From: an uncultured delta proteobacterium | Lineage (GTDB): Bacteria; Myxococcota_A; Polyangia; Polyangiales; Polyangiaceae | Reading direction: 5' to 3' | Assembly (NCBI GenBank): GCA_963716725.1 | Contig: CAVQUB010000032.1 | Coordinates: 64,001-128,000, forward strand | DNA: 64,000 bases | Part shown: piece by piece, positions 1-8,263 of the stretch | Layout: every line of letters begins with the position of its first letter | How positions within the stretch are numbered: the stretch's first letter is position 1 | Made by a program: the position numbers and the translations under genes | The notes under the pieces: model-generated | Told to the model about the DNA's origin: nothing | The model's database searches: none | What the model saw: only the letters and a program-made list of their open reading frames with translations

Positions 1-726
1 TGCGACGTGGGCCAGCTGCCATCGGATCCATCGATGGCCGCCCGACTTCAACGCGAGCCGCCGCTCGCCGCCCTCGCCTACGAGATCGCGCCCCGGTTGC
101 CCGAGCATCTCTTCCCGCGACAAGCCCGTGACCTCTTCGAGCCTGCGGTTCCAGACCTGGATCTCGCCCTCGGCGCCCAGGGCCATCACCAGCGCTGGGA
201 CGGCCTCCACGAGCTCGCGGTGGCGGGATTCGGATTCTTCCAGCGTGGCCGCGCGTTCGGCGCCGCGCACGCTCTTCGACAGTTGGTCGTGGTAGGCGTC
301 GAGCAGGACGGCGAGCTCGAGATCCACGAGCGCGCGAATCGCGGACTCTCCGGCTGTGAACCTGCCTGGCTCGCGGAGCCACACCCGGCGAACCAGCTGG
401 ATCAGGCCGGCGCGAAGTCGAGTGGTCGCGACCAACAACGAACAAGCGGGAAGCCCCAAGCGCACGTACATACTGCCGACGCGCTCGAGGCCTTCGATCC
501 AAGCGTGGTCGTGTGGGCCCGAGAGCGACGTCGCGAGCTGAGCTTCCAGCGCGAGCTCGACGCGATTGGGGTCGACCACCGCGTTTCGCACGATTGTTTC
601 GTGGAATTCTTCCGCGAGGCGGCGAAGCTCCGGAGTGGCGAGGGGCGCGAGCTCCGCCAAGGTGCCCTCGGCGGCGGCATCGAAGCCGACGCAGCGTCGA
701 ATCCGCTCGAAGTCAGCTGGTTCCAT
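1..726 (-). CDS. Globin-coupled sensor (protoglobin domain + PAS), probably a histidine kinase; runs off the left edge of the window
   Basis: Not in ORF track. Manual translation from ATG 726: MEPADFERIRRCVGFD...RLAEEFHETI...GPHDHAWIEGLERVGSMYVRLGLP...VDLELAVLLDAYHDQL, then PAS-like ELVEAVPALVMALGAEGEIQVWNRRLEEVTGLSREEMLGQ. Pattern matches Anaeromyxobacter-type globin-coupled kinases. Confidence 0.85.
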   Translation of the reverse strand, partial: MEPADFERIRRCVGFDAAAEGTLAELAPLATPELRRLAEEFHETIVRNAVVDPNRVELALEAQLATSLSGPHDHAWIEGLERVGSMYVRLGLPACSLLVATTRLRAGLIQLVRRVWLREPGRFTAGESAIRALVDLELAVLLDAYHDQLSKSVRGAERAATLEESESRHRELVEAVPALVMALGAEGEIQVWNRRLEEVTGLSREEMLGQPGRDLVGEGGERRLALKSGGHRWIRWQLAHVA

Positions 727-1234: not shown

Positions 1235-1740
1235 TTGGGATCTCCTTTGAGCGAGGCGTGTTCGTCTGAGCCGTCGCGCTCACCAGGCTCGGTCATCGGT
1301 ATCACCAGCACGGGGCAGGGTGCGAGCCTGACCACGCGTTCCGCCACGCTCCCCAGCACGACGCGTCGCGCCCCGGTGCGGCCGTGGGTCCCAAGCACCA
1401 GCAGATCGACGCCGGAAACCTTCGCTCGCTGCAGGATTACGCCGGAGGCGTCGCCGACCTCGTAGCTCACCGTGACCATCGCGCGGTCCTCGGCCGAGAG
1501 AGGCGCCAGGAACCGCTCGACCTGGGCCTTGGCTTGATCCTCGGCCAGCTCCCAGAGGGGCCGCGGGCCGACCGCAGCCCAGACCAGGATGCTCGGCTGG
1601 ACGTAGGCGGGCACGCTGTGGACGTGCAGCACCTCGAGCGTCGCCGCGAACCGACGCGCCAGGGACAGCGCCGTGAGCAAGGCCGCCCGCGAAGGATCCG
1701 ATGTGTCGATGGGGCAGAGGATGCGACGATAGCCGGTCAC
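1231..1740 (-). CDS. Universal stress protein (UspA family)
   Basis: YRRILCPID...[12 protein letters not shown]...[19 protein letters not shown]; start set at GTG 1740, overlapping the upstream TGA. Confidence 0.93.
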
Positions 1741-2330
1741 GGGGATCTCTCTCGAGCAAGTCTCATGCCGCTCAGGGGCGGTGGTCGGGGACGGCGTAGC
1801 CCTCGGATTCGAGCCAGCCACCGCAACACGTCGAGGGAGCTCAAGATCCCCACCACCTTGCCCGCCTCCGAGACGACAGGAACGCGGTGGACGCCTTCGA
1901 GGGCCATCAGGGCCGAAGCGCGCGCGATGGAGGCGCTAGAAGGCATGGTGAACGCGAGGGGAGTCATCACGTCACGCACGGTCGCGTCCCTGAATTGCTC
2001 GACGTGCATTCCCCGGTCGAGCCGGGCCTGGATCCCGCCGCTGCTCACGGCCGGGCTGCTCCGCTCCAGCGTGTCTCCGCGATCGGCGAAGTCTCGGAGC
2101 AGATCGGTCTTGGACACGACGCCAAGGGCGCGACCCGAGGCGTCCACCACTGGCGCTCCGCTGATCCCACGTTCTAGAAACAAAGCTAGCAGCGCCTCGA
2201 TGCTCAGGTCCGGCGACACCGAGACGACGTGGTGAGTCATCACCTCGGAGACGGGGGTGGTATCGGCTGGACCGGCCTCCTGACCTGCCGGGCGCTGAGC
2301 GGCGCCGACGGATTCCAATTTGGAACTCAT
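1737..2330 (-). CDS. Tandem CBS-domain protein
   Basis: VSEVMT...ISGAPVVD...GVVSKTDL; VRDVMT...VHRVPVV...GILSSLDVL; GAGAGG RBS before ATG 2330. Confidence 0.9.
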   Translation of the reverse strand: MSSKLESVGAAQRPAGQEAGPADTTPVSEVMTHHVVSVSPDLSIEALLALFLERGISGAPVVDASGRALGVVSKTDLLRDFADRGDTLERSSPAVSSGGIQARLDRGMHVEQFRDATVRDVMTPLAFTMPSSASIARASALMALEGVHRVPVVSEAGKVVGILSSLDVLRWLARIRGLRRPRPPPLSGMRLARERSP

Positions 2331-2344
2331 GATGTCATCCTCTC

Positions 2345-2388
2345 GCGCACTGCCTGCGCCGCCAGAGCAACCAGCGCACCCATTGCGC
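2345..2388. promoter_or_regulatory. Paired palindromes GCGCA-N5-TGCGC (putative sigma-54 activator binding sites)
   Basis: GCGCACTGCCTGCGC at 2345-2359 and GCGCACCCATTGCGC at 2374-2388, 29 bp apart. Confidence 0.7.
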
Positions 2389-2423
2389 AGGTCTGCTTCG
2401 ACGCCGTCGGCGAAGGCCCGAAT

Positions 2424-2439
2424 TGCAAGTGTCGAACCA
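2424..2439 (-). promoter_or_regulatory. Sigma-54 -24/-12 promoter for the CBS-USP-USP-globin sensor operon
   Basis: Minus strand TGGTTCGACACTTGCA (GG-N10-GC). Confidence 0.7.
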
Positions 2440-2455
2440 GGGCATGTACGTTGCA
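2440..2455 (+). promoter_or_regulatory. Sigma-54 -24/-12 promoter for the CBS gene at 2501
   Basis: GGGCATGTACGTTGCA (GG-N10-GC), back-to-back with the divergent promoter. Confidence 0.7.
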
Positions 2456-2500
2456 TCGTATCAGCGCTAGAACCGCGCACGGAAGAGAGGATTTCGAGCA

Positions 2501-2917
2501 ATGGTCGTCCAAGAAGTCATGACCGAGGATCCGATCACCGCACAGTCCAGCACCGCCATCGGGACAGTGTTGAACACTCTCTTCGAGAGCGACGTCAGGC
2601 ACCTGCCCATCGTCGACGGCGATCAGCTCGTTGGTATCGTGAGTGATCGCGACCTGCGCGCATTCCTTGCCCCGTCAATGCTCGAGTTCGAAAAGCCCGA
2701 GGACGTGCGCAAGCGCCTGGCTCAGCCGGTGTCCACCGTGATGAACGCGGACGTGGTGAGCGTCACTCCCGAGACGGACTTGTCCGAGGTCATCGAGATG
2801 ATGATCGATCAGAAAGTCGGCGCCGTACCCGTCGTGCAGCCGGGAACCGACGAGCTGGTGGGCATCGTCAGCTACATCGACGTACTTCGGGCGGCCCAAG
2901 ACCTCTTCGAAGAGTGA
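2501..2917 (+). CDS. Tandem CBS-domain protein
   Basis: VQEVMT...VRHLPIVD...GIVSDRDL; VSTVMN...VGAVPVV...GIVSYIDVL. Confidence 0.93.
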   Translation: MVVQEVMTEDPITAQSSTAIGTVLNTLFESDVRHLPIVDGDQLVGIVSDRDLRAFLAPSMLEFEKPEDVRKRLAQPVSTVMNADVVSVTPETDLSEVIEMMIDQKVGAVPVVQPGTDELVGIVSYIDVLRAAQDLFEE

Positions 2918-6116: not shown

Positions 6117-7175
6117 TCAGCAGATCCGTGGCAGCTGTTCGCCGCTCTGAAGCCTCAGCGGGCGCATCGCGCCGAGGGGGCCCCGGGCGGACACCGAGCC
6201 GCGCGTGCCGCGCATCTTCGTCACGGTGCCGATGCGGACCGCCGCGGACGAGACGGAGTGCGCGCGCAGTGCGGCCAGGCATGCCGCCTCGTCGGCCGCC
6301 GGGACGATGGCCACCATTCGGCCCTCGTTCGCGACGTAGAGCGGATCGAGCCCGAATAGCTCGCACGCCCCCCGGACGGCGTCGTGCACCGGCACCAGGC
6401 CCTCGTCGATCTCCATGTCCACGCTCGAGTCCAAGCAGAGCTCCGCCAAAGCCGAGGCCAAGCCCCCGCGGGTCAGATCGCGCAGGCAGTGCAGGTCGAC
6501 TTTGGCCTCCAGGAGCGCGCGCACGGGATCGACGAGGGGAGCGCAATCGCTCTGGAGGGTGCTCCCGAGCTCGAGTCCGGCGCGCACGCCCATGACCGCG
6601 ATTCCATGGCGGCCGACGTCACCGCTCGCGATCACGGCGTCCCCAGCCTGAATGCGCCCGGGCCGCACGTCCACGGTGTCGCGGACCCAGCCGACGCCCG
6701 CGGTGTTGATGTAGACTCCGTGCCCTCGACCGCGGTCGACCACCTTCGTGTCTCCAGTGACGATGGCGACGCGGCATTCCGCAGCAGCGTCGGCCATCGA
6801 CTGCACGACCCGCCGCAGGCTGTCGAGGGGGAAGCCCTCCTCGAGCACGAATCCCGCGCTCAGATACGCGGGTTCGGCCCCCGCCATGCAGAGGTCGTTC
6901 ACGGTGCCGCACACCGCGAGCGTGCCGATGTCCCCTCCGGGAAAGAAGATGGGGTCCACGACGTAGCTGTCGGTGGTCATGGCGAGTCGGGCGGCGCCCA
7001 CCGGGAGCACGGCGGAATCGTGGCGCGCCACCGGCGCGGAGGAGTCGAAGGCGGGACCGAAGACCTGCTCGATCAGGTCGCGCATCAGCCGGCCACCACC
7101 ACCATGTGCGAGCTGCACGGTGTCGTGACGGAGCGGGGAGGCCGGACAGCTCGGCGAGAAGGGTTCGCGGCTCAT
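6117..7175 (-). CDS. hypE: Hydrogenase maturation protein HypE
   Basis: [33 protein letters not shown]-terminal GEQLPRIC. Confidence 0.97.
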
Positions 7176-8263
7176 GTCGCCGGCCGCCGATACGCGTAGT
7201 ACGCAGCACACGCGCCCTCGCTCGAGACCATGGTCGCACCCAGGGGGTGCTCGGGAGTGCAGCGCGTGCCGAACGCGGGGCAGTCGGTGGGCTTCTCCAC
7301 CCCGCGCAGAATCCGCCCGCTCCGGCACTCCGCCGGCTCTTCTGCTCGCACGCTGCCCACGTCGAAGCGGCGCTCCGCATCCAAGGCCAGGTATTCCGCG
7401 CGGAGGCCCAGCCCGCTCGCAGGGATTTCGCCGATGCCGCGCCACTTTCGCGGGACCACCTCGAACACGGAGTCGACCATCCGACGCGCATCGGCGTTGC
7501 CGTGCTCGGCGACCGAGCGCGCATACTGATTTTCGACCTCGTGGCGCCCGCTCTCGAGTTGCTCGACGCACATCAAGATGCCCTGGAGTAAATCGAGGGG
7601 TTCGAAACCCGTGGCGACGATGGGAACGCGGAAACGCTCGGCGATGGGCCGGTACTCGTCGAGGCCCATCACCGTGCACACGTGTCCGGCGGCGATGAAC
7701 GCATCGACCGTTGCCTCGGCGTCCGACAGGATGGCCAAGAGCGCGGGAGGCACCAGCACGTGGGACACCAGGAGCGAAAAGTTCGCCAGCCCTTCGCGCT
7801 TGGCGAGATGGGCGCACATGGCGATGGCCGGCGCGGTGGTCTCGAAGCCAACGGCGAAAAACACGACCTCTCGCTGGGGGTTTTCCCGGGCGACGCCCAA
7901 GGCGTCGAGGGGGGAGTAGACCACTCGGACGTCGGCTCCGCGGCTCTTGGCCCCGAACAAGTCGGAGGTCGAGCCGGGGACCCGGAGCATGTCGCCGAAG
8001 GAGCACAGGATCACGCCGGGCTTTTCGGCGATGGCGATCGCGCGCTCGATCATCTCCAGCGGCGTGACGCAGACCGGGCACCCGGGCCCGTGGATCAGTG
8101 TCACGCGATCCGGGAGCAGCTGATCGATGCCGAAGCGCACGATGGAGTGCGTCTGGCCTCCGCAGACTTCCATGATGCGCCAGGGGCGGGTCACCGTCGT
8201 TGCGATGGTTTCGGCGCAGCGTTGCGCCAGGGCGGGGTCTCGGAACTCGTCGATGAGCTTCAT
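7172..8263 (-). CDS. hypD: Hydrogenase maturation protein HypD
   Basis: [37 protein letters not shown]. Confidence 0.98.

Follow-up and report, generated by a model that had tools for sequence, protein, structure and literature searches.

Globin-coupled histidine kinases and the Nmp relay are a known route from oxygen to gene expression in myxobacteria. In M. xanthus, the oxygen-active kinase NmpU, a homologue of AfGcHK, phosphorylates the receiver of NmpS and thereby silences NmpS, and under hypoxia NmpS phosphorylates NmpR (PMC11841059, PMC6211767). The H96A substitution in NmpU abolishes heme binding and autokinase activity, and the NmpR regulon is reported to include CBS and universal stress protein (Usp) genes (PMC11841059). 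The globin of AfGcHK (Anaeromyxobacter sp. Fw109-5; structures 5ohe and 5ohf) has His99 as the proximal residue at helix position F8 and Tyr45 as the distal residue at B10; the latter is needed for oxygen recognition, and the ferric six-coordinate form is an active state (PMC8697598). Here, we analysed a histidine kinase gene at the left edge of a window of 64,000 nucleotides from an uncultured delta proteobacterium of the Polyangiaceae (GCA_963716725.1, contig CAVQUB010000032.1; G000:C32:64001-128000). Judged from related loci, it is close to certain that this gene is an in-frame fusion of an NmpU-type globin with an NmpS-type PAS-kinase, and its globin carries Tyr at F8 and His at B10.

The reading frame opens with an ATG at position 726 on the minus strand, immediately preceded by an in-frame TAG, and the whole kinase has 488 amino acids in the genome (L001:7260-8726, minus strand; L001 is the locus of this genome, G000). 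Pfam places Protoglobin (PF11563) at residues 4-149 (E 3.3e-10, 40.6 bits with a cut-off of 25), PAS at 170-216 (E 8.4e-7), HisKA at 272-337 and HATPase_c at 381-484, the last two forming a C-terminal transmitter in the same polypeptide as the globin, and the kinase motifs are all conserved in this frame. Protoglobin is the only globin-type match; the remaining Pfam matches (E-values up to 1) belong to PAS families, apart from a weak hit to DUF3253. The initial annotation, made from the letters alone, had read a minus-strand sensor globin with a PAS domain behind it, and both the frame and the domain are borne out. Like AfGcHK, the protein carries an N-terminal sensor globin on a HisKA/HATPase kinase. 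However, the globin of AfGcHK is joined directly to HisKA, while a PAS domain is interposed here; His99 (F8) and Tyr45 (B10) are replaced by Tyr and His; and, unlike in AfGcHK, the kinase core comes from a different gene than the globin.

The origin of the gene can be read from related loci. In three genomes of the same genus (G002, G003 and G004) and in the metagenome locus L104, the gene order is epimerase-CBS-CBS-Usp-Usp-U-T-S-R-Usp-PFOR, where PFOR is pyruvate:ferredoxin oxidoreductase. According to the Pfam matches in L104, U is Protoglobin-HisKA-HATPase, T consists of two receiver (REC) domains, S is REC-PAS-HisKA-HATPase and R is REC-Sigma54-HTH_8. The four architectures, the gene order and the links to CBS and Usp genes are as for nmpU-nmpT-nmpS in M. 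xanthus, and, judged by similarity to AfGcHK and by these architectures, the same-genus set of U, T, S and R matches NmpRSTU. In G000 and G001, a single gene is located where the relatives have U-T-S, and the context is unchanged, with the NtrC-like regulator, Usp, PFOR and a DHOD-like gene following it. The locus keeps an Nmp-type context, namely a globin kinase beside an NtrC-like regulator, together with CBS and Usp genes.

The kinase follows U up to about residue 161 ('...ERLAT', just before the H-box of U) and S from residue 162 ('LEESE...VEAVP', the PAS N-cap). In the junction alignment, U reads '...IRAHERLAT', S reads 'LEESERRYREVVEAVP' and the fused protein reads '...VRGAERAAT LEESESRHRELVEAVP'. 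Residues 160-483 are 73% identical to the REC-PAS-kinase of L104, and the PAS-kinase relatives that start with a receiver and have a separate globin kinase just upstream (L104, L023) show 60–73% identity. About 1880 nt are absent from this locus relative to L104. In trees of the globin part and of the PAS-kinase part, all fused sequences fall into a single clade, with 100/99 support, surrounded by sequences of the same genus. Moreover, G000 (84% complete) contains a single Protoglobin match and no separate U kinase with its own HisKA-CA; an NmpT-type double-receiver gene is absent from its kinase locus, no second S-type or T-type orthologue was found in this 84% complete genome, and the closest T-like match elsewhere in it has 36% identity over one REC domain. 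The kinase has no N-terminal receiver of the NmpS type, and the globin stands there instead. Among 301 genomes of the family, the fused form, which also bears a deletion in the globin described below, was found in G000 and G001 only. NmpU, NmpT, NmpS and NmpR are separate proteins in M. xanthus, whereas U, T and S are here collapsed into one polypeptide; the published logic, in which U silences S, is inoperable because the kinase core of U, the whole of T and the receiver of S are gone.

Fusions of the U-S type seem to have happened more than once. Canonical globin-PAS-kinases (L024, L017, P0007 and P0034) have the same domain order as the kinase studied here, but they keep the B10 Tyr, the F8 His, the E-helix Trp and the full C-E region, and their Protoglobin scores are 64–131 bits. 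Two of them, L024:7965-9461 and L017, are older and separate fusions with canonical heme residues and a shorter, differing junction; because of this junction and their separate groups in the tree, they appear independent of the fusion in G000. L024 comes from a Polyangiaceae MAG, and its gene context is Usp-Usp-kinase-response regulator-Usp. Most of the 33 longer representatives that were scanned show Protoglobin, PAS and kinase domains, and many of them keep canonical heme residues.

Other arrangements also exist in the family. In two other genera, represented by L187 (G008) and L188 (G013), U is directly followed by S and R, with no T gene detected between them. In L186 (G006, 73% complete), the S-type kinase matches as four adjoining pieces (6546-7943), which suggests frameshifts or assembly errors.

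The best PDB sequence match of the globin domain is the AfGcHK globin chain 5ohe_A (E 1.9e-13, HMMER). In this alignment, 'laeefhetiv' lies on 'LAEEFYDRIL', placing His42 at Tyr45 (B10), and 'rvgsmyvrlglp' lies on 'RIGRVHVRIGLP', placing Tyr87 at His99 (F8). The C-E region is 9 residues shorter than in AfGcHK, the alignment showing two gaps (5 and 4 residues) in the stretch from helix B to helix E. The initial annotation had assigned the codons at 601-603 and 466-468, which read CAC and TAC, to the distal and proximal positions and had suspected a shorter C-E region; both hold, and no other His is placed at F8.

The family alignment contains 171 rows, which are the kinase itself, 151 proteins from an exhaustive search of representatives (clusters at 50% identity) and 19 sequences from the loci of relatives; a word-index search with residues 1-160 gave 2 proteins only. 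Of these 171 sensor globins, 165 carry His at F8, and the exceptions have Tyr (4), Phe (1) or Gln (1); 156 carry Tyr at B10. The same family supplied 22 further genomes, all of which have the F8 His and keep the E-helix Trp. The clade of the kinase was taken as its 90%-identity cluster plus one 81%-identical protein, and 10 of these sequences include the globin domain. All 10 have Tyr at F8, while B10 is Tyr in 7, His in 2 and Cys in 1, although the proteins are 81–99% identical. The pairing of substitutions proposed at the outset, a swap of the two heme-pocket residues, is real in this strain but does not extend to the orthologs, where the proximal half is universal and the distal half occurs in only 2 of 10. 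Two further pocket positions depart from the family: position 56 (E11; Leu in 92% of the family) is Val or Ala in the clade, and the E-helix Trp63 (99% conserved) is Gln or Arg, the clade members being the sole rows without Trp among the 171 and the 22 genomes. The Protoglobin scores are 111 bits for U of L104, 95 for L024, 44 for L103 and 38–41 for the kinase.

Metagenomic data were also compared. The F8 codon is unchanged in contigs of 4 runs from 4 studies (biofilter, wastewater, groundwater and one metatranscriptome), and one wastewater run has the B10 Tyr allele (603 G>A). With Tyr in 10 of 10 clade proteins and in these contigs, the F8 Tyr is therefore neither an error nor a one-off.

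DNA near-identical to positions 1-1300 of the window was found in metagenomes of 8 studies, which sampled wastewater, biofilters, sediment and groundwater (20 rows, 15 of which hold at least half of the sampled words), and at least two strains of it are present in one wastewater run. The metatranscriptome run X16 has contigs over 453-599 and 735-1291, but because such libraries can contain DNA, these contigs point to expression only weakly, if at all.

The sister lineage (G001 and L103), whose globins are 52–54% identical to that of the kinase, carries Phe at B10 and keeps a CAC-encoded His at F8. The 9-residue deletion is present there as well, and it is common only to the kinase, P0001, P0002, G001 (L003) and L103. 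The B10 Tyr, 93–94% conserved in the family, has been replaced three separate times, by His, by Cys and by the Phe of the sister lineage. Because the sister lineage has the deletion and Phe at B10 yet keeps the F8 His, the alignments place the deletion first, then the repeated and independent loss of the B10 Tyr, and then the change of the F8 His to Tyr in the clade of the kinase only. By the same alignments, the F8 change has become fixed in the lineage, while alleles at B10, a site free to vary, differ between strains.

Loss of the F8 His is rare, being found in 4 of 151 clusters (at 50% identity, close relatives). Outside the clade, the representatives without it are P0058 (Tyr), P0094 (Phe) and P0132 (Gln), all of which are also without the B10 Tyr and all of which keep the Trp. 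These three are unrelated globin histidine kinases, and loss of the heme ligand thus recurs in the family.

The globin and the kinase part have evolved at different rates. On the stem branch of the fused clade, the globin accumulated 0.97 substitutions per site vs 0.17 in the PAS-kinase part, while the globin/PAS-kinase ratio on terminal branches of unfused lineages is 0.8–2.1. At an equal PAS-kinase identity of 76% to G002, the globin identity is 44% for the fused kinase vs 66% for G003, and the loss of identity is largest in the C-E, F and G segments. In comparison with P0002, the globin is 81% identical and the PAS-kinase part 88%. The ratio of nonsynonymous rates (dN) between globin and PAS-kinase is 2.4–3.7 in the fused proteins vs 1.2–1.6 in the unfused ones, and only this ratio is raised. 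These branch lengths and rates indicate that the globin diverged quickly after the fusion. The ratios of nonsynonymous to synonymous rates (dN/dS), given below, indicate that the domain is clearly under purifying selection and still useful to the cell. The globin part of a variant strain in run X7 differs by 6 nonsynonymous and 4 synonymous changes, which are too few to weigh.

The globin fold is retained in the predicted structure. The AlphaFold2 model of residues 1-165 has a predicted local distance difference test score (pLDDT) of 94.3 and a predicted TM-score of 0.89, and the lowest pLDDT (about 70) is at the deletion site. Its best Foldseek match is AfGcHK 5ohf_C (TM-scores 0.78/0.87, root-mean-square deviation 1.9 over 145 columns). 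In the full-length model (pLDDT 85.7), a continuous helix from 120 to 175 spans the fusion junction, and the PAS domain is small, with five strands and without the long F-alpha helix. A homodimer was predicted with a score of 0.46 vs 0.00 for the best control. All three runs lie above the best control and agree in at least 65% of contacts, with a partner pLDDT of at least 80, and the predicted interface comprises residues 9-13, 93-103 and 135-153. Of 30 proteins solved as pairs of one chain, 20 reach the mark used here, as does 1 of 23 solved as single chains. Dimers of this kind have already been solved, and the prediction may have passed by reproducing them.

Our preferred reading, to which we give a probability of roughly 55%, is that the globin is a heme-free dimerising module, a pseudo-sensor, standing in place of the inhibitory receiver. 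The loss of canonical oxygen sensing on a His-ligated ferrous heme is well supported, because the F8 His is lost, B10 is unconstrained and other features of the pocket have changed, and we infer that the globin is probably heme-free. The starting point was an ancestral oxygen-responsive locus of the Nmp type, with the globin kinase U, the double-receiver protein T, the receiver-PAS-kinase S and the NtrC-like R. A deletion of about 1.9 kb joined the U globin, via one continuous helix, to the PAS-DHp-CA part of S, taking out the U kinase core, the entire T and the inhibitory receiver of S. After the fusion, the pocket was remodelled, with the 9-residue C-E deletion and the freeing of B10, followed in the clade of the kinase by the loss of the Trp, the change at E11 and then the change of the F8 His to Tyr. 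A release of the pocket from constraint is suggested because the other representatives without the F8 His (P0058, P0094 and P0132) are also without the B10 Tyr. The globin would persist because, as an N-terminal module that dimerises and is coupled through a helix, it keeps the S-type kinase in a state that is either fixed or set by the PAS domain, a scaffold role to which the confident AfGcHK-like fold, the helix 120-175 across the junction and the dimer runs above control point. As for the consequence for signalling, we infer that the fused soluble kinase most likely still phosphorylates the adjacent R-type regulator among the Usp, CBS and PFOR genes, and that the pathway would no longer receive its oxygen input or would receive it at another point.

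Several points weigh against the heme-free module. Tyr at F8 alone is no proof of heme loss, as Tyr can ligate ferric heme in globins (PMC12494546). Tyr is found in 2 of 4 lineages without the F8 His (the clade of the kinase and P0058), and because of this recurrence it could be selected rather than merely tolerated. Purifying selection on the globin also fits a working ligand-binding sensor: pairwise dN/dS is 0.27–0.33 for the fused globin, which is not above the 0.23–0.37 of unfused U globins, with pairwise dS near saturation in most pairs. The older globin-PAS-kinase fusions keep their heme residues, and therefore fusion alone does not force heme loss. Besides, some departures from the consensus (Cys12 and positions 94 and 97) sit in the predicted dimer interface, not in the pocket, and this interface may have been remodelled after the fusion.

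Hemoglobin M variants keep a ferric heme with tyrosinate ligation, and Tyr87 might similarly be the tyrosinate ligand of a ferric heme, which would make the protein a sensor of redox state, heme availability or anions and not of oxygen; we consider this unlikely, though it is the next most probable reading. His42 may then be the sixth ligand in this strain, and the kinase would switch as the Tyr leaves the iron on reduction to Fe(II). The F8 His-to-Tyr position is the same in hemoglobin M and in myoglobin H93Y, the latter being a tyrosinate-bound heme reported in a paper whose reference list includes heme-bound Tyr in hemoglobin M, and Tyr is on this evidence a competent ligand of ferric heme (PMC12494546). 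The fixation of Tyr in 10 of 10 clade proteins and its independent appearance in P0058 agree with this reading, as do the confident AfGcHK-like fold and the purifying selection, and redox signalling is within the repertoire of the family, given the active ferric six-coordinate form of AfGcHK (PMC8697598). However, hemoglobin M and myoglobin H93Y are single-site changes in intact pockets, whereas several other pocket features have changed here, with Trp63 lost, E11 changed and 9 distal-side residues deleted. His, Tyr and Cys at B10 in proteins 81–99% identical would mean very different coordination in near-identical strains, and the three other lineages without the F8 His also lose the B10 Tyr, as expected for an unconstrained pocket. 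It is rather doubtful that a natural Tyr-ligated ferric heme sensor has arisen from a His-ligated oxygen sensor within one genus, with B10 alleles setting the sixth ligand and tuning strains; if true, the locus would be a ready-made natural allelic series for the conversion of a gas sensor into a redox or heme sensor. Both options raised by the initial annotation, a heme-free pseudo-globin and a Tyr/His-ligated heme sensor, stay in play, and the evidence leans to the heme-free one.

The remodelled pocket might also bind another small ligand in the manner of RsbR (fatty acid), with Arg or Gln63 and Tyr87 forming a new site, and we regard this as improbable. Non-heme globin sensor families do exist in which the same pocket is reused with other residues, and the N-terminal domain of RsbR, like the globin studied here, is a globin-fold sensor without the proximal His that is kept in a signalling protein (PMC8717448). 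The persistence of purifying selection after the heme residues were lost, and a polar or charged residue in place of an invariant Trp, would fit such a site. However, its residues are not fixed (Gln or Arg at 63; His, Tyr or Cys at 42; Val or Ala at 56), and no ligand can be proposed. RsbR-type domains are an old separate family with a ligand residue of their own, while the present globin is a recent offshoot of a heme lineage; by Pfam it shows no RsbR-type similarity and is not in the RsbR N-terminal family, since it still scores as Protoglobin alone. A canonical oxygen-sensing heme globin with an alternative proximal His is very improbable. The candidates, His72 and His74, are found where helix F starts, but both were rejected as the replacement F8 ligand: the column of His72 holds His, Tyr or Trp across the family and is not clade-specific, and His74 is Leu in P0002. 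The 5ohe alignment puts Tyr87 itself on His99, and the B10 Tyr needed for oxygen recognition in AfGcHK (PMC8697598) is unconstrained here. That the two codons were misread in sequencing, or that the gene is a pseudogene, is hardly credible and is refuted by the intact 488-residue frame with its conserved kinase motifs, by a dN/dS of about 0.3, by the length of 488 amino acids in 8 of 10 members of the 90%-identity cluster and in the single member of the P0002 cluster, and by TAC in the contigs of the 4 runs.

None of the titles and abstracts listed in the literature searches (subscription journals lay outside them) describes a natural F8-Tyr globin kinase or a U-S fusion, and 'fusion' and 'fused' do not occur in PMC6211767; the searches returned instead RsbR-type non-heme globins and engineered heme-free mutants. 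Globin-PAS-kinases with intact pockets, which are common, and non-heme globin sensors are already known (PMC8717448). What is new is the recent in-place collapse of a characterised three-protein relay, together with the stepwise loss of heme residues in a lineage that still scores as Protoglobin. With a three-gene relay and a one-gene fusion in the same neighbourhood of sister genomes, the locus is a dated natural experiment. The fusion removes an inverting step, in which U phosphorylates and silences S, and the simplification of a multi-step phosphorelay can be tested directly here. It also bears on what use a sensor domain retains after losing its cofactor site, or, if Tyr is a ligand, on how Tyr ligation turns an oxygen sensor into a redox sensor. 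For annotation, a Protoglobin match alone does not imply heme or oxygen sensing.

Table 1. Coordinates of the fused kinase gene, its features and the neighbouring genes (positions in the window unless stated otherwise)
Feature	Position	Strand	Remarks
Histidine kinase gene, first 242 codons	1..726	-	Runs 741 nt past the left edge of the window (G000:C32:63260-64726)
Sensor-globin domain (residues 1-160)	247..726	-	Derived from a globin kinase of the NmpU/AfGcHK type; placed by the tree within the U globins of the same genus
Start of small PAS domain (residues 170-242 in the window; strands 179-251 in the model)	1..219	-	From an NmpS-type kinase
Fusion junction Thr161/Leu162	241..246	-	Upstream residues from gene U, downstream residues from gene S
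Tyr87, codon TAC	466..468	-	Proximal F8 (family His); 5ohe_A alignment
His42, codon CAC	601..603	-	Distal B10 (family Tyr); polymorphic, Tyr allele is 603 G>A
Gln63, codon CAG	538..540	-	In place of the 99%-kept E-helix Trp; Arg in P0001 and P0002
9-residue deletion site in the B-E stretch, falling between Val51 and Asp52	571..576	-	From alignments
Cys12	691-693		Every fused-lineage sequence has Cys where ~80% of the family has Tyr; part of the predicted dimer interface
Universal stress protein, 154 aa	770..1234	-	Directly upstream; Pfam Usp E 1.1e-39; syntenic in all loci compared
Universal stress protein, 196 aa	1231..1821	-	Upstream; Pfam Usp E 4.4e-34; syntenic
CBS-pair protein, start of open reading frame uncertain	1737..2501	-	Pfam CBS E 3.4e-28; syntenic
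CBS-pair protein, 138 aa, divergent	2501..2917	+	Pfam CBS E 5e-29; syntenic
NtrC-like regulator, downstream of the kinase	L001:5845-7122 (G000:C32:61845-63122), left of the window	-	REC, Sigma54_activat 62.6 bits, HTH_8

The NtrC-like regulator has a 7-residue gap exactly over 'GAFTGAS' of LuxO (5ep0) and contains no GAFTGA-like motif. Because this loop is missing, the regulator may work without sigma-54, unlike NmpR of M. xanthus. Its Walker B region reads 'VEDL', and the orthologue in L104 is likewise without a GAFTGA-like motif. After the regulator, on the same strand and left of the window (L001:785-5845), are a Usp gene, a PFOR gene of 1182 amino acids and the DHOD-like gene. Every same-genus locus long enough to include them has these genes in the same positions, and anaerobic pyruvate metabolism would accordingly seem to be part of this regulon.

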